Origin: Chiloscyllium plagiosum
Lineage: Eukaryota
Assembly (NCBI RefSeq): GCF_004010195.1
Contig: NC_057718.1
Coordinates: forward strand, 95,623,158-95,687,157
Direction of reading: 5' to 3'
DNA: 64,000 nt
Position numbers and translations under genes: made by a program. Positions 4,819-62,285 of the stretch are shown here, piece by piece. Numbering within the stretch: position 1 is the first letter of the stretch; every line of letters starts with the position of its first letter. Under the pieces are notes generated by a model. It ran no database searches. It worked only from the letters and a program-made list of their open reading frames with translations, and was not told where the DNA came from.

Positions 4819-5935
4819 TACCTGCATGTAATTATTTTTCATGAGCATTTCAAGGTCTTTCCATCAGATTTGTACGTCGCGTTGGCTCTGAACATACTGC
4901 GTACTGGCCGAGAATACATAGGTAAGATTGTTTACGTGTAATTTCAAATAATTCCTGAGTATGGCCCACAGCTTCTCTGAGGGACTGTGAACCATGAATC
5001 CTTGAGAAGCTGGTCATTCCCCATAAAATGTGAAGGGTTTGGGGTTAGGGGAGGGGACAAGTGGAAATGCAGTACCTATCCCCACAGTGGGACAATCCCC
5101 AAGTCAGGAATTCAGGACGAAAGCGCCCTTCCCACATGTGGCTTTAACCTGGGCCAGTGAAAATTGTCGAAACCCTGAACTGAAGTGTCAATTGGATCAT
5201 GCCCGCCATCTTTAAACACCAGCAAAGACACTTGTCTCCAATGAAAATCTAACTTTTTTTGCTTTTGTATCCAATTTATCAACACGATTCATAATAATGA
5301 ACATTTCTGTTAGGTCACCTCTCAGGTTTCTTTCAAGATGAACAATTCAAGAACAAAGAACAAAGAAAATTACTGCACAAGAATAGGCCCTTCGGCCCTC
5401 CAAGCCTGCGCCGATCTAGATCCTCTATCTAAACCTGTCGCCTATTTTCTAAAGATCTGTATCCTTTTGCTCCCTGCCCATTCATGTATCTGTCTAGATA
5501 CATCTTAAGTGACGCTATCGTGCCCATCTCTATCACCTTTGCTGGCAAAGCATTCCAGTCACCCACCATCCTCTGTGTAAAGAACTTTCCACGCATATCT
5601 CCCCTAAACCTTTCCCATCTCACTTTGAACTTGTGACCCCTAGTAATTGAATCCCCCATTCTGGGAAAAGCTTCTTGCTATCCACCCTGTCTATACCTGT
5701 CATGATTTTGGAGATCTCAATCAGGTCGTCCTTTCTAATGAAAATAATCCTAATCTATTCAACCTCTCTTCATAGTTAGCGCCCTCCATACCAGGCAACA
5801 TCCTGGTGAAACTCCTCTGCACCCTCTCCAAAGCATCCACATCCTTTTGGTAATGTGGCAACCAGAACTGTATGCAGTATTCCAAATGCGGCCAAACCAA
5901 AGTCCTTTCCAACTGTAACATGACCTGCCAACTCA

Positions 5936-6728
5936 CCTGGTAGAAGACAGAGGGTGGTGGTGGACAGTTGTTTTTCAGACTGGAGGACTGTGACCAGTGG
6001 AGTGCCACAAGGATCGGTGCTGGGTCCTCTACTTTTGTCATTTACATAAATGATTTGGATGCAAGCATAAGAGGTACAGTTAGTAAGTTTGCAGATGACA
6101 CCAAAATTGGAGGTGTAGTGGACAGCGAAGAGGGTTACCTCAGATTACAACAGGATCTGGACCAGATGGGCCAATGGGCTGAGAAGTGGCAGATGGAGTT
6201 TAATTCAGATAAATGCGAGGTGCTGCATTTTGGGAAAGAAAAACTTAGCATGACTTATACACTTAATGGTAAGATCCTNNNNNNNNNNNNNNNNNNNNNN
6301 NNNNNNNNNNNNNNNNNNNNNNNNNNNNNNNNNNNNNNNNNNNNNNNNNNNNNNNNNNNNNNNNNNNNNNNNNNNNNNNNNNNNNNNNNNNNNNNNNNNN
6401 NNNNNNNNNNNNNNNNNNNNNNNNNNNNNNNNNNNNNNNNNNNNNNNNNNNNNNNNNNNNNNNNNNNNNNNNNNNNNNNNNNNNNNNNNNNNNNNNNNNN
6501 NNNNNNNNNNNNNAGAGACTTAAGGGGCAACTTTTTCACGCAGAGGGTGATACGTGTATGGAATGAGCTGCCAGAGGATGTGATGGAGGCTGGTACAATT
6601 GCAACATTTAAGAGGCATTTGGATGGGTATATGAATAGGAAGGGTTTGGAGGGATATGGGCCGGGTGCTGGCAGGTGGGGCTAGATTGGGAAGGGTCTGT
6701 TTCCATGCTGTACATCTCTATGACTCTA
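5936..6728 (+). mobile_element. HER1/CR1 LINE fragment nested in the previous element
   Basis: [28 protein letters not shown]; tail ctctatgactcta; flanked by aactc. Confidence 0.9.
6279..6513. other. Assembly gap (N run)
   Basis: 235 Ns. Confidence 1.
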
Positions 6729-10230: not shown

Positions 10231-10557
10231 CAGGGCTGCCCTGTGATGAATTGCACCAACATGTCTCATTAACCAGTTTTACTGTGTTTTCCCTCTGGGA
10301 GAACTTTTTTTGTTTGAAGGATACCTTTCCAAATGGATTAGTAATTGTCAATCTCCATATGAAACTGTTGCATGTAAATAGATGCTTTATTAAAGTATTT
10401 ACTGACGATATCAGGTAGATGAGCCTATTTTTGGCAGGGGAGCTGATAATTAGTAGCAGAGGTGAACATAGAGAACAGGGGGTGGTTGGGAAACACACCA
10501 TGGTGAGAGATCAGTCATGCCAGATCAGTTGTCAATTTTAAATCTGAGATAGGTAAT

Positions 10558-12471
10558 TAAAACAACTGCACTGGGGCTGGTATCCTGTCACCAAGTCACC
10601 CTGTATTTACACATGCACAGTACATGTATTCTGACCAGCCAGCTGAGAGCCAGTCCCTGGATTGAGGAGACTCTCTGATACACCTGTTCATTTCTTTTCC
10701 TTTCTCCCACACTGCTACTGTACAGCAGGAGTGCCTATGTTTCCCCACAACACCCGTGTTGTAAGTGTATATGTCCAGTGATTCAGTAACGACACAATGT
10801 GCAAATAATTTTATTTCAATATTTCCAAACACCCATGTGGCCAGTGAACCAACAACAAGCAAAGCCTGTTAAGGGCAATGCTTTCATGGAGAAAGTGAAG
10901 GGGGGCACGGGGCGGTAGGGATTAAATCAAAATAGAACTGGAGGGGTGAGATTCCTGTTCAATTTTTTTTCCAGCACCCATGTTATGTGTGTGCAGGTGT
11001 AGGACACAGTGAAGAATAAGGGAGCAAATCTTTATTTATATTCCACCAGCAGGAAGAAAGGGAACACCAGAGTGACAAGCAAAGCCCTTCTCATCAGAGG
11101 GCAATGCTGCATGATCAAAAAAGTGAAGGGGAGGGCAGGGATTAAATCAAAATAGAGTGGGAGTAGGAAATAAGACACTCCACTCCCTGAAGTGCCCACC
11201 TCTCCCTGAAAATCTTGAGTGTGTTGGTGGACACTGCGTGCTCCTTCTCCAGGGACATTCTGGGCTTGAATGTAACCTCAGAGGAGGGGCAGGCAATCAG
11301 CCATAATGACCCCCTCCACGGCCCCCTGCCTGGACTTCGAGACTCCTCATCTTTTCTTATTCTTTCTTTTCCTTTTTGTTTCAAAATAATCACAACAAAC
11401 GATAAAGGAAATCAAAAATCAAAAATGTCTACCTGAAACAAGGGCAAGAGAACAAAGCAAACTCTCCTCCTCAGTAGGAAACGCCAACAGCAGTAATAAG
11501 ATACACTGACTGTGTGGTCCAGGCAGTTCAGAGGTCAGTCCCCTCCCTAACACACAAAATGGAGAGTCCCTCACCACTGATCCAGCTCCCTCAGAGCCAG
11601 CTATCAGAGTGGACAGAACCTCTGACGTTTCTGTTTTTTAAATTCGTTTTTTTTCCCCTTTCCCCACACTACCATCTAACAGAGGTAGTGCTTATTTTTC
11701 CCCAGCTCCCATGTCATGTGTGTGCAGCTGTCGAACACAGTGAAGAACAACCAGTTACAAACAATGCCCTTCTCAAAGGGCAATGCTGTGTGATCAAACA
11801 GTGAAGGGGAGGGCAGGGATTAAATCAAAATAGAGTTGGAGGGGGAAATAATGCTCTTCACTCCCTACAGTGCCCACCTCTCCCTGAACAGCTCAAGGGT
11901 GTTGGTGGACACCGCGTGCTCCTTCTTCAGGGACACCTGGGCTCTAACATAACCACGGAGGAGGGGCAGGCAATTGGCCCTAATGACCCCCTCTACGGCC
12001 CCCTGCCTGGACCTGGAGATGCATGTTCATTTTTTTTTCCTCAGAGTCTGCTCTCAGGATGAACAGGATCTCTCACACTCCTGTTTTGTTTTTTCTTTTT
12101 CTTCTTTTTTTTCTCCAGCACTCGTGTTGTGTGTGTGCAGGTGTGAGACACAGTGAAAGACACAAGGTGAGACACATGTTCTTTTTGTTCTTATTCCCCT
12201 GACACTCCTGGTTATTTTTTTTTCTCTCTCCTTTTTCTTTTTTTTCTTCTCTTTTTTTTACCCCCACACTACCGCCTAACTGCGGTAGTGCTTATTTTTT
12301 CCACAGCACCCATGTTGTGTGTGTGCAGATGTGAGACACAGTGAAACACAAGATGAAACACATGTTCATATCTGTTAGCCAGGGCTCCCTGATTGGCCCA
12401 GGTTAACAGTCCCAGTCAGGGATCTAATACTCAGCAAGATCCACCTGACCAACCTCATTCCAATCACTGTA
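10558..12471 (-). mobile_element. Short LTR-like element (halves 10558-10691 and 12358-12471) split at its TATA box by a LINE array
   Basis: Both halves align colinearly with the uninterrupted copy 29352-29587; duplicated junction acacctgttcat 10680-10691 / acacatgttcat 12358-12369. Confidence 0.75.
10692..12357 (-). mobile_element. Head-to-tail array of five truncated Tx1/L1-like LINE ends
   Basis: Units start with poly-T at ~10692, 10962, 11637, 12087, 12215; shared 3'UTR (cagcacccatgttgtgtgtgtgcag..); units 2 and 3 encode an SLEKEHAVSTNTL..FRERWA.QGV-type peptide recalled as Tx1-clade ORF2 C-terminus. Confidence 0.7.
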
Positions 12472-12799
12472 TATCAATATCTTTGTTTGGCAAAGAGGTT
12501 CAGGGAAATGAGCTAAAGGGGGTTACAGTATATAGATTTAGGCCACAAGCTGTTGAGTGCTGGAATGAGCTTGAGGGTCTGAATGAAACACTCTTATTCC
12601 TGTGAGAATGGGAATGTACAAGAGCGTGGTGAGATGGGAGCACACCTTGAGCTTCTGCTCACTTGCTTCCTGTTGACCATTGTGACCTTGGTGATCCAGG
12701 TCACCAAGTAATAGGTAGACCCTGTGCTGCTGACCGGTTTGATGATCACTCCTGTCGAGTGCCTCACTCCCCAAACAAAGCAAATTGCATTTTTGTATC

Positions 12800-14664: not shown

Positions 14665-15228
14665 NNNNNNNNNNGTAGTTTGCAGTTTGTATCCATGTAG
14701 TGCAGGTGAACCCACAATACTGTTAAGGAGGGAGTTCCAGAATTTGACCCAGCGACCAGGTTTCCAAGTCAGGATCATTGGTGGCTTGGAGAGGAACTTG
14801 CAGGTTGCGGTGTTCCCAGGTGAACTGAAACCAAGAGGTCATTTATAAGTGAAGCTGATTGGTGTGGACTAATGGGCAGTTATCAATGACCGAGGTCCTT
14901 TGCCAGCCAACAACTGTATGATTGGTCATCAACTAGCTGAACAGCTCGGGCTGCAAAGCAAGACAGAGAGAAGCTAGTTCAGACCAGAAGGGAAAGTAAG
15001 AGGTATGTATCAGCCAAAAACACTCTCTCTCAGTTCTGTCCAGTAAACCACTTTAAACTCAAGAGAAAACCAACCTATCTTTCCTTTAGCAGATGATACA
15101 AGTTGTGATTTTGAATTGGATAAGTAGAGACCTTTCACAGGTAAGCCAGCTCCCCCCCCCCCTACCCCCATTCCTCCCCACCCCTGTCTCTTGCAAACCA
15201 GTGGAAACTTTCAGAAAAAGGGAGAACT

Positions 15229-15451
15229 AACCCAAATGGATCTGTGGAACAAAGACCACAAACTGTTTTTCCAGTTTTCTGTCCACCACATGTTTTTTTA
15301 TCTGCTTTATGATTGTCTGTGTATAAAAGAATGAGTTTAAACCCAAATGGATCTGTGGAACAAAGACCATCAAACTGTTTTTCCAGTTTTCTGTCCACCA
15401 CATGTTTTTTTATCTGCTTTATGATTGTCAGTGTATAAAAGAATGAGTTTA
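15229..15451. repeat. Tandem duplication, 2 x ~111 bp
   Basis: aacccaaatggatctgtggaacaaagacca...gaatgagttta starts at 15229 and 15340. Confidence 0.9.
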
Positions 15452-21446: not shown

Positions 21447-21603
21447 AAGAAACAGTAATAGAACACAAATGCACACAGATTAGAAATAAGAAGTCAATCC
21501 AAAAAAGGTAACAGTAAAATACATTTATCAGTCTCTTAATTGTTGGTGAAGGGAAGATACAAAGATGTTGCAGCCATTAGAGAATGACACCAGTAGTGCT
21601 GAC

Positions 21604-22043
21604 TTTAGTGATTGTAACAAGGTCAGACAGCTGGAACTCATAGAATGAGTTCCCTAATTGGACTAGACTAACAGCCTCAATCAGGGAATCCTGGCTGACA
21701 GATATAAACAGGATTAGAGTAGTGCTGGAAAAGCACAGCAGGTGAGGCAGCATCCGAGGAGCAGGAAAATTGATGTTCCTGATGAAGGGCTTTTGGCCGA
21801 AACGTCGATCTGCTTGGATGCTGCCTGATCTGCTGTGCTTTTCCAGCACCACTCTAATCTGGACTCTAATCTCCAGCACCTGCAGTACCCACTTCGGCCT
21901 AAATATAAACAGGAGTCTCAGGGGCTCTGTTCACTCTGAGGGTTGGCTGTGAGGGAGATGGATCAATGTCAAGGACCTTCCAGGCATAAATAATGATTGT
22001 AAATAAAGGGTGACGGGATGCCAGCCTCTGAGGAGCTTTTTCA
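21604..22043 (+). mobile_element. Short LTR-like element with P1 fold-back inserted at the TATA box
   Basis: tttagtg...caatcaggg...gatataaacagga...aaataaa...tttca; flanks ctgac/gtgac; homologous to 29352-29587. Confidence 0.7.
21714..21902. mobile_element. Penelope-like P1 fold-back mini-element
   Basis: Inverted arms; TSD atataaacagga 21702-21713 and 21903-21914. Confidence 0.85.
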
Positions 22044-23898
22044 GTGACAGCTATTATTCAGTCGATCTTAAGGCTCTTAGATTTGTAAGTTGATTGAAAT
22101 TTCTTCATACTGATACCTTTTGAACTATTTGCCAGCACTCTCACTGAAAGAGAGAGTTTGCACCATTTGTTTTACCTGCAATGCAGGTGTGTTTAAATGG
22201 CTGTTCTCAGAGCTGTGGTCCTCACATCACTCTTGACCACGCACAATAAGGCATGTGGCTAACAACAGACTAATATTGTGGTGAATTTCTAACTTTTTAA
22301 ATAAATTTCTGGATGAGATATAGTCATGTCTGCAAGAGATGGTTTTCTGCTGAAAGGGGGGATGTGCAACCCTTTCATTATCTCTTCTTAAATTTCTCTA
22401 TATTTGAAGTTTCCCTCACTCTTTACAGATGTGACATTCCACAGGCTTAATACAGAACATTGTTGGATAATCATTGAATTTAAGTGTATAGTTTACCTTT
22501 TCTGTAGCAGTCCTTTCTTAAAAAAAATTTTGGAATTAAAAGTAAAAAAAAAGGTTAGGGTTAAATACTTGGCTTTTCAATCCATCGTTGTATTATTTTT
22601 TGGCCAGAATAATCAATGGGTGAAGGCTCAAAAATTAGGTTCGAAGACAGATTGTTTTATGGGGCTGGGGTGGGAAAAACAAAACATGTTTTGAATTGTG
22701 AACTGCATCCAAAGGATTTGGCAAAAGTCTAGCCACAACAAAATATTAGGAGTTAGAACTTTCTCTGAACTGCTCCTTGCTCAGCCATTGTCACTAAGCC
22801 AGATGCCTACAGGCGTGGTTAAGACAGCAAAGGGATAAAGATGAGGAATTTAATCTTCCCACATTTATCTGGATACAAACATGATTAATTCAAGACTCTG
22901 TCTAGATTTTCATGTTGGACTCAAGAAATAAAAGTCTTGCCATTTTCCAACTTCTGAAATATGAAACCATCAACTCTACCTGTCTCCCCTCGATGTGGAA
23001 GGACAGAGTCTTCTGAATCCTGGGAATTTTTGGCAAACTTCCAAAACATTACATTGATGTTTGAAATGCCAGTCTTATAATCTCTGTTTCTCCTGTTTAT
23101 ATAATTGTCCAAATGAAAACAGTTGCTGTGTGCAACAGTGTACATTTGTTTGGGATAATTTTGTTTGGAAAAATGGTGATGATGTGTTGTGCTGTACGAT
23201 CAGTATATTAGTGTGTATCTCACAGACATAAGTGTCAGTATACCTTTAAGAGTCATGTTCACTATATTATCTCTGTGTCATAGCTTGTGATCTGATGATA
23301 TAAAAAGATCACATACTGCATCTTAACTTGAGCCACTTGAAGCATGACATGCTGACGGAAACATACTGCTCTTTATAATCCAATAGCCTAATGTAAACTC
23401 AGGTACTGAAGTGCATCGGATAATAATATTATATATTAGTGAGCTGCAGTAAATCTCTGTTGGATCTTACCCACATCTTGTGTTATGAGTAGTAACATAA
23501 ACATGATCCCTTCAACTAAAGATAGCTTGTTGGAGGACAAAATGTGCATCAGATGCTGGTGCCTGTGCTCCACTCAAGCCCTCTTAAGCTTGTCTGGATT
23601 CCCTTTAATTACTTTTATATTATTTGCTTTAACAACTATCTGTGATGGTGAGTCCTAAATTCCTTCCACTGTTCAGGTAAAAGAAGTTTCTTTTGAATTC
23701 TCCACTAGATTTCTTGGAAGCTATCCTATATTGATGACATCTAGGTAAGCTCTTCTCCACAAGAGGAACATTCCACCTATCCACTATATTAATCTTTCAG
23801 AATTTTGAAGATCTCTTAAATCTCCTGATAAGCTGAAAGGTAGAAGTTAAAATATCCCAGGAAATTTTACTTAGCTCAAAGGTCATATAATCTTAATT

Positions 23899-24225: not shown

Positions 24226-24594
24226 CTGACCCACTCTGCCACAGCTCTCAGCTTATAATGATTCACCTTTATTTCCCAAGAGAAAAAGGTCACCGCATAT
24301 TTCAAACACGAGCTTTTATAACATTTTGTATTCATGATATGAATTATTATCAATTCATACACAAAAGATGATTATTTTGCTAATCACGTTGGCTTCGGGT
24401 GTTATTCAACCCTGGGCTTTTACCAATGCTAAAATAAAATAAATGCTCTTCCTTATTTGGCTTATGTCATATCCAGGAGCAGTTGAGCTGCAACGTAGTC
24501 ATTTCACTGAGGTACGTTGTTTTCTCTGAAACATTTTTAATCACTTTCTATATACACTTAGATACAGTTTCATTTCTTCAGCAAGCAAAACTCT

Positions 24595-26195
24595 AATAGA
24601 CGCATTGGTAATCATTTTCCAATGTTCGAAAGATTCAGGATCAGTTCCCGTAGATTGGAGGGTGGCTAATGTCCCACTTTTCAAGAAAGGAGGGAGAGAG
24701 AAAACAGAGAATTATAGACCAGTTAGCCTGACATCAGTGCTGGGAAAGATGCTGGAGTCAATTATAAAAGATGAAATTATGACTCGTTTGGATAGCAGTA
24801 ACAGGATAGATCAGAGTCAGCATGGATTTACAAAGGGGAAATCGTGCTTGACTAATTTTTTTGAGGATGTAACTATGAAGATAGACAAGGGAGATCCAGT
24901 GGATGTCGTGTACCTGGACTTTCAGAAAGCTTTTGATGAAGTCCCACTTAGGAGATTAGTGAGCAAATTTACGGCACATGGTACAGGGGGCAAAATACTG
25001 ACTTGGATTGAAAATTGGCTGGCTGACAGGAAGCAAAGATAGTGATAAACGGGTCCCTTTCGGAATGGCAGGTACCAGTGGGGTACCACAAGGTTCGGTG
25101 CTGGGACCGCAGCTGTTTGCAATATACTTTAATGATAGAGATGAAAGTATTAAAAGTAATATTAGCAAATTTGCTGATGACACAAAGCTGGGTGGCAGGG
25201 TGAAATGTGAGGAGGATGTTATGAGAATACAGGGTGATGTGGACAGGCTAGGTGAGTGGACAGATGCATGGCAGATGCAGTTTAATGTGGATAAATGTGT
25301 GTTTATCGACTTTGGTGGCAAGAACAGGAAGGCAGATTACTATCTAAATGGAGTCAGGTTAGGTAAAGGGGAAGTACAAGATCTAGGTATTCTTCCTGAA
25401 GAAGGGCTTATGCCCGAAACGTCGATTCTCCTGTTCCCTGAATGCTGCCTGACCTGCTGCGCTTTTCCAGCAACACATTTTCAGCTCATTCTTGTACATC
25501 AGTCAATGAAAGCAAGCATGCAGGTACAGCAGGCAGTGAAGAAAGCTAATGGTATGCTGGCCTTCATAACAAGAGGAATTGAGTATAGGAGCAGAGAGGT
25601 CCTTCTACAGCTGTACAGGGCCCTGGTGAGACCACACCTGGAGTATTGTGTGCTGTTTTGGTCTCCAAATTTGAGGAAGGACTTTCTAGCTATTGAGGGA
25701 GTGCACCATAGGTTCACAAGGTCAATTCCCGGAATGGCGGGACTATCATATGTTGAAAGATTGGAGCGATTGGGCTTGTATACACTTGAGTTTAGAAGGA
25801 TGAGAGGGGATCTGATTGAGACGTATACGTTTATTAAAAGATTGGACACTCTGGAGGCAGGAAGCATGTTTCTGGTGATGGGTGAGTCCCGAACCAGAGG
25901 ACACAGTTTAAAGATAAGGGGTAGGCCATTTAGAACAGAGTTGAGCGGAAACTTCTTCACCCAGAGAGTGGTGGGTGTATGGAATACTCTGCCCCAGAAG
26001 GCTGTGGAGGCCAAGTCTCTGGATACATTGAAGAAAGAGATGGATAGAGCTCTTAAAGATTATGGAAGCAAGGGTTATGGGGATAAGGCAGGAACAGGAT
26101 ATTGATTGTGGATGATCAGTCATGATCATAATGAATGGAGGTGCTGGCTCGAATGGCCAAAGCCTGCACCTATTGTCTATGGTCTATTGTCTAAT
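24595..26195 (+). mobile_element. CR1 LINE, 5'-truncated degenerate ORF2 (RT) with nested 99-bp PLE insertion
   Basis: ORFs 24605-25042 (NYRPVSLTS, QHGF, YLDFQKAFD) and 25008-26105 ([16 protein letters not shown]); (ctattgt)-like tail. Confidence 0.95.
25395..25487 (+). mobile_element. P1 Penelope terminal fragment with hammerhead-like core
   Basis: cctgaagaagggcttatgcccgaaacgtcg...; TSD attctt 25389-25394 and 25488-25493. Confidence 0.8.
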
Positions 26196-27720: not shown

Positions 27721-29351
27721 ATTTTTAAGAATTGTTTGAAAAGAGTTGCAGGGAAGTAAGGACAGAGTGTGGGAGTAGACTCACTGATGCTTACAGCACT
27801 GAGATAGACCGTTCGGTCCAACATGTCCATGGCAGCCAATAGAGAAGTTTCTGATTTCATTGGCAAGATACTGGGCACCCAGAAGCACCACAGGCAGGAA
27901 AGATATGCAGCCAGGAGCTCATCAGAGAGTGAGGCCTCTCACAACTTCAGCTGCAGCGGCCATCATGAGAGCCTCAACGAGACAGCCCTAGAGGAGTGCT
28001 AATGGGAATGTACCACAAATGCTCAGTGCATCAGGAACCATGCATTTAATGTCAAAAGGCAAGGAGGAATACAAAGCCAACTTGGCACATGGTTTTGGCA
28101 TTGGTTGGAGCCTATTCTTTCCAACATGCAAGTGGTGACCAATTTCATTCCACTATTGAACCCAACGATGCAGCATCTGATGACCAATCTCTGAACTCTT
28201 ATTCAGTGCAGCTGGTAGCCATCCTAGTGAACCACTGTAGTTGTTGTACTATGTCTCATGACCACTAAGAGACACACTCCTGACATCATTGCAGTATCAT
28301 ATGACAGTATAAAGGTCTCATACTCTATCTTATCCAAGTATCACTTGAAGCATAATAAGCTATTGAATGCATATAGCTCTCTTTTGTAGCTTAATTGCTT
28401 CATGTTACCCCAGACATTTAGGTGTCTGAAGTATACTGTTTGTAAATAGTAGTCACTTATATTAAAAATCTGTTGCTGTCCACACCCAGTTAATGTTACA
28501 GGAGGTAACATATGCATTGTCACATTAGGTAAAGTGCTCTGTTGATGGCAAAATCACGTCAGTGGTAAAACCTCAGAATGCATAGCTTGCAAAAGGTCTT
28601 GCTAATAATTGGTCCTTCAACAGAGTTTGCCAAGGTGTTACCACAGTCACTACATGGAACGCAAACATTCTTTCCTTTCTCAGTAAAATACCATTCGTCA
28701 TCCTTCCCTTGCCAATCCACCAGTACCCTGGCCATTGACTCATCATCAGCCTCAGCTGTTCATAAATGTCAAGATGATGCAATGCACGGCCTGACCTAGT
28801 ATCCTGCCTGAGGTCATCTTCCAAGGCCTTCTGTAATCTTCTGTACAGAATATCAGGCACTTTCATCTCTCCATGCTCCAGCCTAGGTTAGTCCTTGTAG
28901 GAACCCTACAACAGGCAGAAGTATAGGAATACTTTTATTTCCAATGGTTTGTGTTGCCCTAACCTTGTGCAGTACGTTGAGCTATCTTGCATTGCTCTCA
29001 GCTCATAGCACAGCTTCTGTAAGGAATCCCCGCATGCTGCTGCATGAAGATCATGTCTAATCAACACGTGAGTGCTCCATCTTTAAGTTTCCGGTTTAGC
29101 CGATAAAATCAAATTATAGTTACCAGCTGTTAGGGCCAACACTGTGCAATGCAATTCCAGACTTTCGAACAGGCATTTCATAATTCCACTGCACCAATTT
29201 AGCATTTGTTTTTACTTTTTGTGCAACATTTGGTATCCCATTCTGAATCAATAAATATAGGTATTATAGTGACTGATCAATTGTGGGGCTAGTCGGGGAT
29301 GTTATAAGTGGGCCCCCATCTTCTGTCTAGGAAGTGATCAAATAAGCCAAA

Positions 29352-29587
29352 TGAAATAACTCCAAGGAGGCTGGAACCCAGTCACCTACTCACCCTTTGT
29401 TTACATGTGTGTAGTACATGACCCTGACCCAGCCAGTTTAGAGCTAGCTCCTAGAGTGAACAGAACCCCTGACAAACTTGTTTATATCTGTCAGCCAGGG
29501 CTCCCTAATTTAACCAGGTTAACAACCCTATTCACAGAACTTGCATCCTATGAGATCCACCTGGCTGACATCATTCCAATCACTACA
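29352..29587 (-). mobile_element. Uninterrupted ~236-bp solo LTR-like element
   Basis: Minus strand starts TGTAGTG, ends TTATTTCA; TATA gatataaac; flanks ccaaa/ccaat (5-bp TSD, one mismatch). Confidence 0.7.
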
Positions 29588-58037: not shown

Positions 58038-59450
58038 AGGGCAGCATAGTGGCTCAGTGGTTAACATTGCTGCCTTACAGTATCAGCGATCTGGATTCAA
58101 CTCCATCCTCAGGAGACGGTCGGTATGGAATTTGCACATCCTCCCCATATCTGTGTGGGTTTCCTCCAACTGGTCTGGCTTCCTCCCACAGTCCAAAGGT
58201 GTGCAGGTTAATGTCTCTCTGACAGCTATCTGGATCCCTCTCACAAACTGCCTTTCTACCTATTTTAGTGTCATCTCCAAATCTGGGTATAACACATTTA
58301 CTTCCTTCCTTCAAGTCATAAATATATTTAGTAAAGCGTTGTAGTCCCAGAACTGATCCCTGTGGAACCCCACTGGTTACAAGTTGCCAACCTGAGAAAG
58401 AGACTCTTATCCCCAGCCATTGTTTCCTGCCCATGAGCCAGTTCTCTAACCATGCCAATATACTATCTCCAACGCTGTGACCTCTTATTGTATGCCTTAA
58501 CCTTTTGTGAGGTACCTTGTTGAACACCTTCTGGAAGTCCAACAATAACAACACATCTACTGGCTCCCCTCTATCCTCTCTGGTTGAGACTTCCTTAAGA
58601 AACTCTAATAACTTAGTCAGACACGAATTCTCTTTCGTGAAGCAATGTTAACTCACTTTGATTAGATCATGATTTTCCAGATGTTCTGCTATTACTTCCT
58701 TAATAAGTGATTCCAATATTTTACAACAATAGATGTTCAGCTAATCAGCTTATGGTTATTCACTTTTTGCCTCCCTTTCTTTTTGACTAGGGGGCGTCCC
58801 ATTAGCAGTTTTCCAATCCTGTGGTACTTATTCCAGAATCCAATGATATTTGGAAAATTACAACCAATACATCTCTGTAGCTCCCTCTTTTAGGATCCTA
58901 GCATGCAAGTCCTAGGGCAAGCAGACGTACCTGCCTTTAGTCTTGTTAATTTGTCTAATACGACTTGAGGGATGGTGATGGTACTTTCTTCTCTCCCCTT
59001 CTTCTTTAGTGTTAATGGAATGTTTGAAGTTCTTCCATCGTAAAGGCTGATGCAAAATATCCTGTTTAACTCCTCTATCACTTCCTTGTTTCGCAAAACC
59101 ATCTCCTCAGATTCATTTTCTAAGGGGCTGATATCCACTTTGACGTCTCTCTTCCTTTTTAAAATAGCTCTTATTGTCAGTTTTTATATTCCTCTCTGAT
59201 TTGCCCTCATAGTTTATTTTCTGTATCTGTATTATCTTTTAGGTTCTTTGCTGGATTTTGATTTTTTTGAGGCTATTGCTGAATTTCGCATCCTTATATA
59301 CTTTTTCTTTCATCATAATTCTCCCCTTAACTTCTTTAGTTAGCCATGGTTGGTTTATCCCACTGTTAGAATCTTTCCTACTTACTGGGATGTATTTTTA
59401 GTGAGAGGCATTAATTTCCTCCTTAAATGTCTACCATTGCTTGCTTACTG
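58038..59450 (-). mobile_element. Degenerate CR1 ORF2 fragment (58210-59450, minus) abutting a HE1 5' half (58038-58210, plus)
   Basis: ORF 58075-58554 [30 protein letters not shown]. Confidence 0.85.
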
Positions 59451-60371: not shown

Positions 60372-62285
60372 CAGTTAGGGGGCTTGAGAGTTATAAATTA
60401 GCCAGAAAAGATCGAAAGAGAGGGCTAAGAAGAGCAAGGACAGGGCATGAGAAGTTTTTGGCAGATAGGATCAAGGAAAATCCTAAGGCCTTCTATAGGT
60501 ATATCAGGAATAAAACAATGACTAGAGTAAGATTAGGGCCAATCGATGATAGTTGTGGGAAGTTTTGTGTGGAATTTGAGGACGTGGGGAAGCACTTAAT
60601 AAACACTTTTTATCAGTATTCACACTGGAAAAGGGCAATGTTTGTGAGAATATAGAGATATGGGCTACTAGATTAGATGGGCTTGCGGTTGACAAAGAGG
60701 ACATTTTAGAAATTTTGGAAGATCTGAAAATAGATAAGACCCCTGAGCCAGATGGGATTTATCCTCGGATTCTCTGGGAAGCCAGAGAGGAGATTGCAAA
60801 GCCTTTAGCTTTGATCTTTATTTCTCTTTGTCAACAGGAGTAGTGCCAGAAGACTGGAGGATAGCAAATGTTGTTCCCTTGTTTAAGAAAGGGAGTACGA
60901 ACAACCCTGGTAATTGTAGGCCAGTGAGCCTTACTTCGGTTGTGGCTAAGGTGTTGGAAATGGTTATAAGAGATAGGATTTATAATCAACTGGAAAGGAA
61001 TAACTTGATTAGAGATAGTCAACACGGTTTTGAGAAGGTTAGGTTGTGCCTCACTAACCTTATGGAGTTCTTTAAAAAGGTGACAAAACAGATGGATGAA
61101 GGTAAAGTGGTTGATGTGGTGTATATGGACTTCAGTAAGGTGGTTGATAAGGTTCCACACAGTAGACTATTGCACAAGATACAGCGTTTCGGGATTGAAG
61201 GTGATTTAGCGGTTTGGATCAGAAATTGGCTCGCTGAAAGAAGACAGAGGGTGGTGGTTGATGGGAAATGTTCATCCTGGAGCTCAGTTACCAGTGGTGT
61301 GCCGCAAGGATCTGTTTTGGGGCCACTGCTGTTTGTCATTTTTATAAATGATCTGGATGTGGCTGTAGAAGGATATGTTAGTAAATTTGCGGATGACGCC
61401 AAGGTCGGCAAAGTTGTGGATAGTGCCGAAGGATGTTATTGGTTACAGAGGGACATGGATAAGATGCAGAGCTCGGCTGAGAAGTGGCAAATGGAGTTTA
61501 CTGCGGTAAATTGTGAGGTACTTAACTTTAGAAAAAGTAACTAGAATGCTGAGTACTGGGCTAATGGTAAAATTCTTGGCAGCTTAGATAAACGAGAGAT
61601 CTCGGTGTCCTGGTGCATTAGTCCCTGAAAGTTGCTACCCAGGTTGATAGGATTGTTAAGAAGGCATATGGTGTGTTGGCATTTATTGGTAGGGGGATTG
61701 AGTTTTGGAGCCACAAGGTCATGCTTCAGCTGTACAAGACTCTGGTAAGGCTGCTCCTGGAGTATTGCGTACAGTTCTGGTCACCGCATTATGTGGAAGG
61801 ATGTGGAAGCTTTGGAAAAGATTCAGAGGAGATTTACTAGGATGTTGCCTCATATGGAAAGAAGGTCCTATGAGGAATGGCTGAGGGAGCTGAGGCTGTT
61901 TTCGTTGGAGAGAAGAAGGTTGAGAGGTGACTTAATCAAGATGTAGATGATAATTGGATGGTAATATAGGGGGGACAGTGAGAGCCTTTTTCCTTGGATG
62001 GTCAAGGTTAACACGAGGGGGACATAGCTTTAAATTGAGGGGTGATAGATTTAGGGAAGATATCAGGGATAGTTTCTTTACTCAGAGAGTGGCAGGGGCG
62101 TGGAACAGCCTGCCTGCAACAGTAGTAGACTCGCCAACGTTAAGGGCATTTAAATGGGCATTGGACATATATATGGATAATAATGGAACGGTGTAGGTTA
62201 GATGGGCATCAGATTATTTTCACAGATTGGTGCAACATCGAAGGCCGAAGGGCCTATACCGCGCTGTAACAGTCTATGTTCTATG
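60372..62285 (+). mobile_element. CR1/HER1 LINE, 5'-truncated degenerate ORF2
   Basis: IKENPKAFYRYI; ORF 60828-61544 RT core ([25 protein letters not shown]); tail gtctatgttctatg. Confidence 0.95.

Follow-up and report, generated by a model that had tools for sequence, protein, structure and literature searches.

Why should a LINE be accompanied by pieces of the very repeat into which it inserts? The question is raised by a locus on the minus strand of the 64-kb stretch of shark DNA analysed here (the window), where LINE pieces and LTR pieces lie together between the two halves of a solo LTR. The initial annotation proposed that the LINE itself begins with a copy of the LTR region downstream of the TATA box, and that each insertion would thereby recreate a target for the next and possibly come to lie under the LTR promoter. 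The way in which the stack was built, and the end of the insert on which the LTR pieces are carried, bear directly on this proposal.

A stack of inserts in the TATA box of a solo LTR

The host belongs to an LTR-like repeat of ~260 nt with three copies in the window, all of them solo (Table 1). The repeat carries CCAAT, TATA, Inr-like and AATAAA motifs, the Inr-like motif lying 29 nt past the first T of the TATA box. In the host, five inserts of a LINE, identified below as Tx1L-related, are set apart by six 15-16-nt target duplications made of host LTR bases. Nine copies of the target can be placed in register. Six are short, their likeness to the LTR extending over 15-16 nt only (at 12369, 12183, 12030, 11353 and 10962, and the host's own at 10691), and three are long, opening the LTR pieces that we call D1 (20 nt), D2 (50 nt) and D3 (64-78 nt). 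Besides the host's own copy at 10691, the initial annotation had overlooked those at 12369, 12183, 12030 and 10962.

Short and long copies differ at two positions of the target. Position 3 is G in all six short copies, as in the host's TATA box, and A in the three long ones; position 13 is G in none of the six and in all of the three. Fisher's test gives p 0.012 for each, the positions having been picked after viewing, and the G at position 3 is possibly derived from an A-tail in two of the six short copies. Three short copies also share a private T, and these bracket D1 and D2, neither of which has it. Because both sit between copies that share a base absent from them, D1 and D2 are not local duplications. 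The diagnostic bases and the private T together therefore identify the six short copies as local duplications flanking the five inserts, and other LTR copies as the source of the long pieces. The same site was hit repeatedly, leaving short duplications and A-tails. An element headed by LTR sequence is not needed to explain the stack, since ordinary 15-16-nt target duplications rebuild the site each time.

Table 1. Features of the stack, in minus-strand order, and the LTR copies of the window
Feature	Position	Strand	Remarks
Host solo LTR, 5' half	12354..12471	-	CCAAT at 12396; TATA-box position 12370, reads TATGAA; ends in target copy 12369-12354; 76% to LTR at 29584-29470
Insertion 1	12184..12353	-	LINE 3' UTR tip with terminal hairpin (z -3.2), A-tail, foreign LTR piece D1 (putative), second A-tail
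D1, putative foreign LTR piece, 20 nt	12215-12196	-	Within insertion 1
Host-type target duplication	12168..12183	-	Private T at position 8, common to copies at 12369 and 12030
Insertion 2	12031..12167	-	LINE 3' UTR piece stopping at internal A-run, A-tail, D2, second A-tail
D2, foreign LTR piece, 50 nt	12088-12039	-	Within insertion 2
Host-type target duplication	12016..12030	-	Register alignment of target copies
Insertion 3, LINE part	11639..12015	-	Last ~65 codons of Tx1L-related ORF2, 3' UTR, hairpin 11692-11662, A-tail
D3, foreign LTR post-TATA piece, ~78 nt	11560..11638	-	Inr-like CCACTCT; lacks host bases at positions 3 and 13
X, moderately repeated sequence	11384..11559	-	T-rich end; join to D3 recurs in other copies
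Second A-tail, closes insertion 3	11354..11383	-	23 A of 33 in 11383-11351; single-locus depth
Decayed host-type target duplication, 16 nt	11338..11353	-	Contains ATG at 11350, not a start codon
Insertion 4	10963..11337	-	ORF2 tail, same start point as insertion 3; 3' UTR ends at internal A-run; 85% over 272 nt
Host-type target duplication	10947..10962	-	Register alignment of target copies
Insertion 5	10692..10946	-	LINE 3' end, more diverged; hairpin and A-tail present
Host LTR, 3' half	10558..10691	-	Opens with target copy; 72% over 137 nt to 29489-29354
Second LTR copy	21603..22025	+	Comparator of the initial annotation; a different repeat splits the LTR at the same TATA site
Third LTR copy	29335..29587	-	Uninterrupted

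Several features of the inserts deserve mention in their own right. Two inserts end at an internal A-run (12113 and 10971, minus strand) without the terminal hairpin, which may therefore be dispensable for copying. Insertions 1 and 2 (12353-12295 and 12167-12107, minus strand) have almost identical starting points in the 3' UTR and are 88% alike; they are possibly a short sub-family transcribed from the LTR, or a local duplication. The ORF2 pieces at 12020 and 11337 (minus strand) begin at the identical point, and in copies elsewhere nt 1-9 of the LTR target are present in the ORF2 codons immediately ahead of this point (a loose end at 11335). The shared start suggests microhomology at the 5' junction, or a LINE hitting its own ORF2.

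The second LTR copy is occupied differently. Within it, at the same TATA site and with ~12 nt duplicated on both sides, lies an abundant inverted-repeat element (21712-21899, plus strand). This element contains a CTGATGA...GAAAC stretch, which we take to be reminiscent of the hammerhead motifs of Penelope-type elements. Rfam returned two matches on 21600-22050, both far below the gathering score, and no hammerhead match. An element of a different class may use the same spot of the LTR.

Identity of the LINE

The inserts hold only the last ~52-65 residues of ORF2. Insertion 3 has one in-frame stop, and its natural stop lies near 11820. A first homologue search with the 52-residue tail yielded none of 11 candidates; at E up to 0.001 the tail finds 33 proteins, and the relatives of the ORF fragment carry Rhincodon, Chiloscyllium and Pristiophorus names. 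The tail is 66% identical to one of them, P0035, which in turn shares 41% identity with Xenopus Tx1L ORF2 across 99% of its length, and in which RVT_1 and zf-RVT score below the cut-off. Aligned directly with the C-terminus of Tx1L (residues 1232-1282), the tail has 19 of 54 positions identical (E 1e-5). Judged by these likenesses the LINE is Tx1L-related, the remainder of its ORF2 being represented here by relatives. In the window, tblastn found no APE endonuclease and no ORF1 of a Tx1L-related LINE. P0035 was confirmed neither in viral contigs (three stretches) nor in bacterial genome contigs (167 stretches), and an atlas search gave a best score of 0.78 and no lead.

Four of the proteins (P0013, P0018, P0027 and P0029) have the ORF2 tail inside unrelated predicted gene models, two of them in named shark records (CutA homolog, golgin-like); these models are probably annotation artefacts or exonised repeats. 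The window also contains decayed reverse transcriptase pieces of other LINE families at 1-831, 5544-6278, 24530-26105, 58075-58647 and 60747-62285 (RVT_1 in 5 of the 11 ORFs scanned), a near-perfect tandem duplication of 111 nt at 15229-15451 (98%), and gaps of N at 6279-6513 and 14665-14674.

The LTR pieces and the sequence beside them

The initial annotation had matched minus-strand positions 11636-11558 to the LTR downstream of the TATA box for ~75 nt, and the match is sound. Between 11636-11560 and 21907-21982, 59 of 77 positions are identical (76.6%, E 3e-9). The score of 62 is the best in the window outside the stack, far above 100 Markov-shuffled versions (27.1 +/- 3.0, maximum 41). The shorter copies reported at 12039-12086 and 12197-12213 exist as well. 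D2 (12086-12039 against 21907) has 35 of 48 positions identical, which alone is weak, a score of 31 being reached by 5 of 100 shuffles; a profile of three LTR copies finds it at E 3.5e-4. D1 (12213-12196) has an ungapped match of 18 of 20 and a profile E of 6.5, and its position in the stack is what marks it as a likely LTR piece. D3 and D2 are closer to other LTR copies than to the host (48 versus 33 matches in ~60 positions for D3; 35 versus 29 of 48 for D2), and are identical to one another at 36 of 48 positions.

Beyond D3 the minus strand enters X, a segment unlike the LTR. To examine it, reads and contigs from two DNA runs (X1 and X9), one RNA run and one possible RNA run, 4 of the 24 runs listed, were mapped on 11250-11750 at 80% likeness. 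The D3/X join is bridged by 8 of 24 listed contig pieces, from both organisms, with at least 31 letters on each side and 12-27 differing letters; the count rests on these 24 pieces among many more (8063 beyond them). X is multi-copy: its depth, which is not equal to copy number, is 74-721 in run X1 and 209-788 in run X9. D3 and the next 140 nt thus form one multi-copy family and not a chance join, and to this extent the link that had been drawn between the LTR piece and its adjoining sequence holds. At the D3/X point the commonest continuation of the LTR is its ordinary end with AATAAA (309 and 279 contigs), so that D3 with X is the rarer family, its peak depth lying ~150-fold below that of the LINE 3' end.

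The 3' ends of this family vary. Depth in X drops toward the 3' end, from 721 to 74 (X1) and from 788 to 209 (X9), the opposite of 5'-truncated LINE bodies. In five joints at other loci X ends at 11527, 11520, 11459, 11405 and 11390; after it come a short stretch that is A-rich in most, then a target copy, then a LINE piece or LTR half. Each joint is one contig per run at 80% likeness, and the five are among the matches listed (37 further joints). Two joints were discounted: 11533-11699 as a short-side alignment, and 11382-11662 because it may be a match between A-tails. Of the pieces listed, seven break off at 11427 or 11421. Two long contigs extend past X, by 1.2 and 3.2 kb and with a depth of 6-7; what lies beyond X in them looks more like unique DNA than the body (ORF1-ORF2) of a shared LINE. 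Upstream of D3 and X, a LINE 3' end is found in one paralogous piece (record 24 of X9) among those listed.

As to what X is, none of the candidates considered fits. It has no notable fold as a structured RNA (z -0.6), and Rfam gave five matches on 10400-12700, all far below the gathering score and none for X. As a diverged LTR end it does not rise above shuffles, of which 309, 207 and 72 of 500 reach its score; as coding sequence it has no match under E 0.1 among 41 proteins. Elsewhere in the window there is no copy (best scores 26 and 28), and no primer-binding site was recognised in X against known tRNA ends. In metagenome contigs an exact 19-mer across the D3/X join occurs at six loci, none matching the stack beyond 19-21 nt, and an 18-mer of X has no match in viral contigs. 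At 11470-11427 (minus strand) X ends in a pyrimidine tract followed by CAG, resembling a splice acceptor, and five listed contig pieces stop exactly at 11427.

On its other side, X had been read as ~200 nt of non-LTR sequence joined to the end of ORF2 in a single element. Between the two, however, lie an A-rich tail (11383-11351) and the decayed 16-nt target copy (11353-11338), and the join is at single-locus depth: 7-18 (X1) and 27-31 (X9) over 11352-11402, against ~1e5 on the ORF2 end. We disregarded the RNA reads at 11352-11387, which match A/T runs. The ATG at 11350 reflects decay of the target copy, because one listed contig of run X9, from a related organism, carries the usual target bases at 11348-11349. 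In run X1, 52 contigs that leave at 11335 go on in normal ORF2 codons, and insertion 3 opens at the same ORF2 point as the 11337 piece with no X ahead of it. The intervening A-tail and target copy, the single-locus depth and the X-free start of insertion 3 together make D3 with X and the ORF2 piece separate inserts. There is no link from X to ORF2 here, and the LTR piece is not the 5' end of the LINE downstream; it sits at the 3' end of its own insertion unit.

Probable read-through copying, its rivals and its parallels

Each of the three long LTR pieces has a LINE 3' end and A-tail ahead of it and a second A-tail behind it, and in three of the five inserts a single pair of local duplications encloses this whole anatomy. 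The mark of 3' transduction is two A stretches together with the 3' target duplication of the source locus (PMC4859970). We consider it fairly probable that D1, D2 and D3 with X are 3' cargo of read-through copying, and that the ORF2 piece at 11337 is a separate insert. A Tx1L-related LINE would nick the LTR inside its TATA box and duplicate 15-16 nt, providing a fresh target on which copies could stack. Source copies elsewhere would likewise sit within LTRs. Their RNA would pass the LINE tail into the downstream half of the LTR and be polyadenylated 20 to 250 nt further on, so that the new copy would land as LINE tail, A-tail, foreign LTR piece and second A-tail. In the source lineage of D3 and X, LTR sequence would yield to X ~78 nt after the target, and the family would have spread by read-through with varied 3' ends. 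The trigger is possibly a poly(A) signal formed where an A-tail meets the first bases of the target; in insertion 1 this join reads AATAAC. The 11337 piece would be 5'-truncated, from an internal target-like spot shared with insertion 3. D1 and D2 end ahead of the LTR's own AATAAA.

The rate that read-through implies, three transductions among five inserts, is high and counts against it. In RNA run X21, of which ~2% was read, 356 reads have a T-run directly beside the LINE hairpin end, and depth reaches 499 on the hairpin and stays under 3 in X. Almost all of these reads are under 95% alike and so come from other copies; the figures suggest that read-through is a minority product.

An unlikely alternative, the idea of the initial annotation taken to the level of the family, is that a full-length Tx1 subfamily has captured the LTR start-site region and that D3 with X forms its 5' head and UTR. 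D3 with X would have come here from an upstream neighbour, by read-through within a head-to-tail array. The sharing of the D3/X join by 8 of 24 pieces would fit such a head, as would a peak depth far below that of the LINE 3' end, which is expected of 5' ends. The Inr-like motif of D3 is in register with intact LTRs, and the seven pieces that leave X at 11427 or 11421 do so into sequence that could be 5' UTR and ORF1. There are precedents, too: Tx1 families with captured heads and a target-derived extension in SINEU-2 have been described (PMC4494074), and L1 lineages swap 5' UTRs, some with T-rich tracts (PMC5381506). Against it, none of the contigs listed links X to an ORF, the depth of X falls 3'-ward with copies ending in tails, and the depth of the long continuations is that of single-copy DNA. 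Nor are D1, D2 and D3 alike enough to be one family leader.

A further-reaching version would have a shark Tx1 subfamily use as its 5' head the region around the start site of the LTR that it targets, the end of the cDNA pairing with the target so that each full-length insertion rebuilds both the TATA-Inr promoter, with its proper spacing, and the target. This we regard as quite unlikely. By simple arithmetic, target positions 17-23 would be missing from a transcript that starts at the Inr. A 16-nt duplication alone cannot restore the spacing, so that homology pairing would be needed. Promoter borrowing as such is geometrically possible: inserts start 18 nt past the start of the TATA box, 11-12 nt ahead of the Inr-like position seen in intact copies, and the LTR promoter could therefore fire into an insert. 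No pile of transcript starts is listed on 11250-11750, where the RNA reads are of the 3'-end type and uninformative on start sites.

Very unlikely, in our estimation, is that D3, X and the A-tail are a short non-coding RNA made from the LTR promoter and inserted alone by the Tx1 enzyme, as a SINE would be, with its LTR part regenerated by pairing with the target. The five other loci, where X ends at varied points with a target copy next, would suit it. D3, however, begins at the target, ~24 nt ahead of the predicted start site, and over its first 16 nt it is foreign and not host-type, with a mean of 7.5 of 14 matches to the short copies, the lowest of the nine. That D3, X and the ORF2 tail are one internally deleted LINE, for which their adjacency in the window and the ATG at 11350 might speak, or that the long pieces are unusually long local duplications, is largely refuted and can be given hardly any credence: that ATG is part of a decayed target copy, depth over the join is that of a single locus, insertion 3 has the identical ORF2 start but no X ahead of it, and D3 and D2 fit other LTRs better than the host.

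Read-through copying thus remains the reading we prefer, and both it and the stacking have parallels. Tx1L of Xenopus laevis inserts at one site of the DNA transposon Tx1D (PMC1950540). Like the shark LINE it uses a fixed site within another repeat, and its ORF2 (the YTX2 record, P0037) is related; the shark target, however, is the TATA box of an LTR and not a DNA transposon, and the shark element is known here from 3' pieces alone. Kojima 2015 (PMC4494074) describes Tx1 families preferring specific LTR retrotransposons, Tx1 families that have captured heads, and a 5' extension derived from the target; the target is also proposed as the origin of transcription. Among them the crocodilian Tx1-8_Crp, Tx1-4_AMi and SINEU-2B_Crp resemble the shark stack in LTR preference and stacked copies. 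Their captured target is the upstream flank and their heads are snRNA-derived, whereas the LTR pieces of the shark stack derive from the downstream flank and sit at the 3' end. In a search of mostly open-access papers, we found no publication on a shark Tx1 family or an LTR-headed Tx1.

A further likeness is to 3' transduction by L1, where the 3' target copy of the source and its flank likewise come to lie between two A stretches (PMC4859970). Unlike L1, the shark LINE is site-specific and its cargo is always the target repeat itself, and for this reason the cargo adds landing sites. The earlier suggestion that LTR pieces bring extra targets is therefore borne out in that sites are imported with the inserts, and, at this locus, mistaken in placing them at the front; they are carried at the tail. 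Other site-specific LINEs also depend on their surroundings. With R2Ol, downstream target in the RNA raises insertion (PMC6795142), and HeT-A uses the promoter of its neighbour (PMC5537684); R2, R2Ol and HeT-A rely on an outside promoter, the first two with co-transcription and read-through, and the shark LINE may do so too. The downstream target of R2 anneals to the DNA (PMC6795142), whereas the LTR flank of the shark element is copied into DNA with a second tail.

As supported here, the building of the stack follows known rules, and the LTR pieces at tail ends correspond to an already known side effect of read-through copying. The locus is a clear record of stacking by a site-specific LINE, in which short duplications renew the site and read-through copies would import spare ones. 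Private base changes in the target copies let local and imported sites be told apart, which is useful for repeat annotation. Should D3 with X prove to head full-length elements, it would answer how the 5' end is retained by a LINE that depends on an RNA polymerase II promoter outside itself: a LINE without a promoter of its own would parasitise that of the LTR, and its 5' end would be kept.
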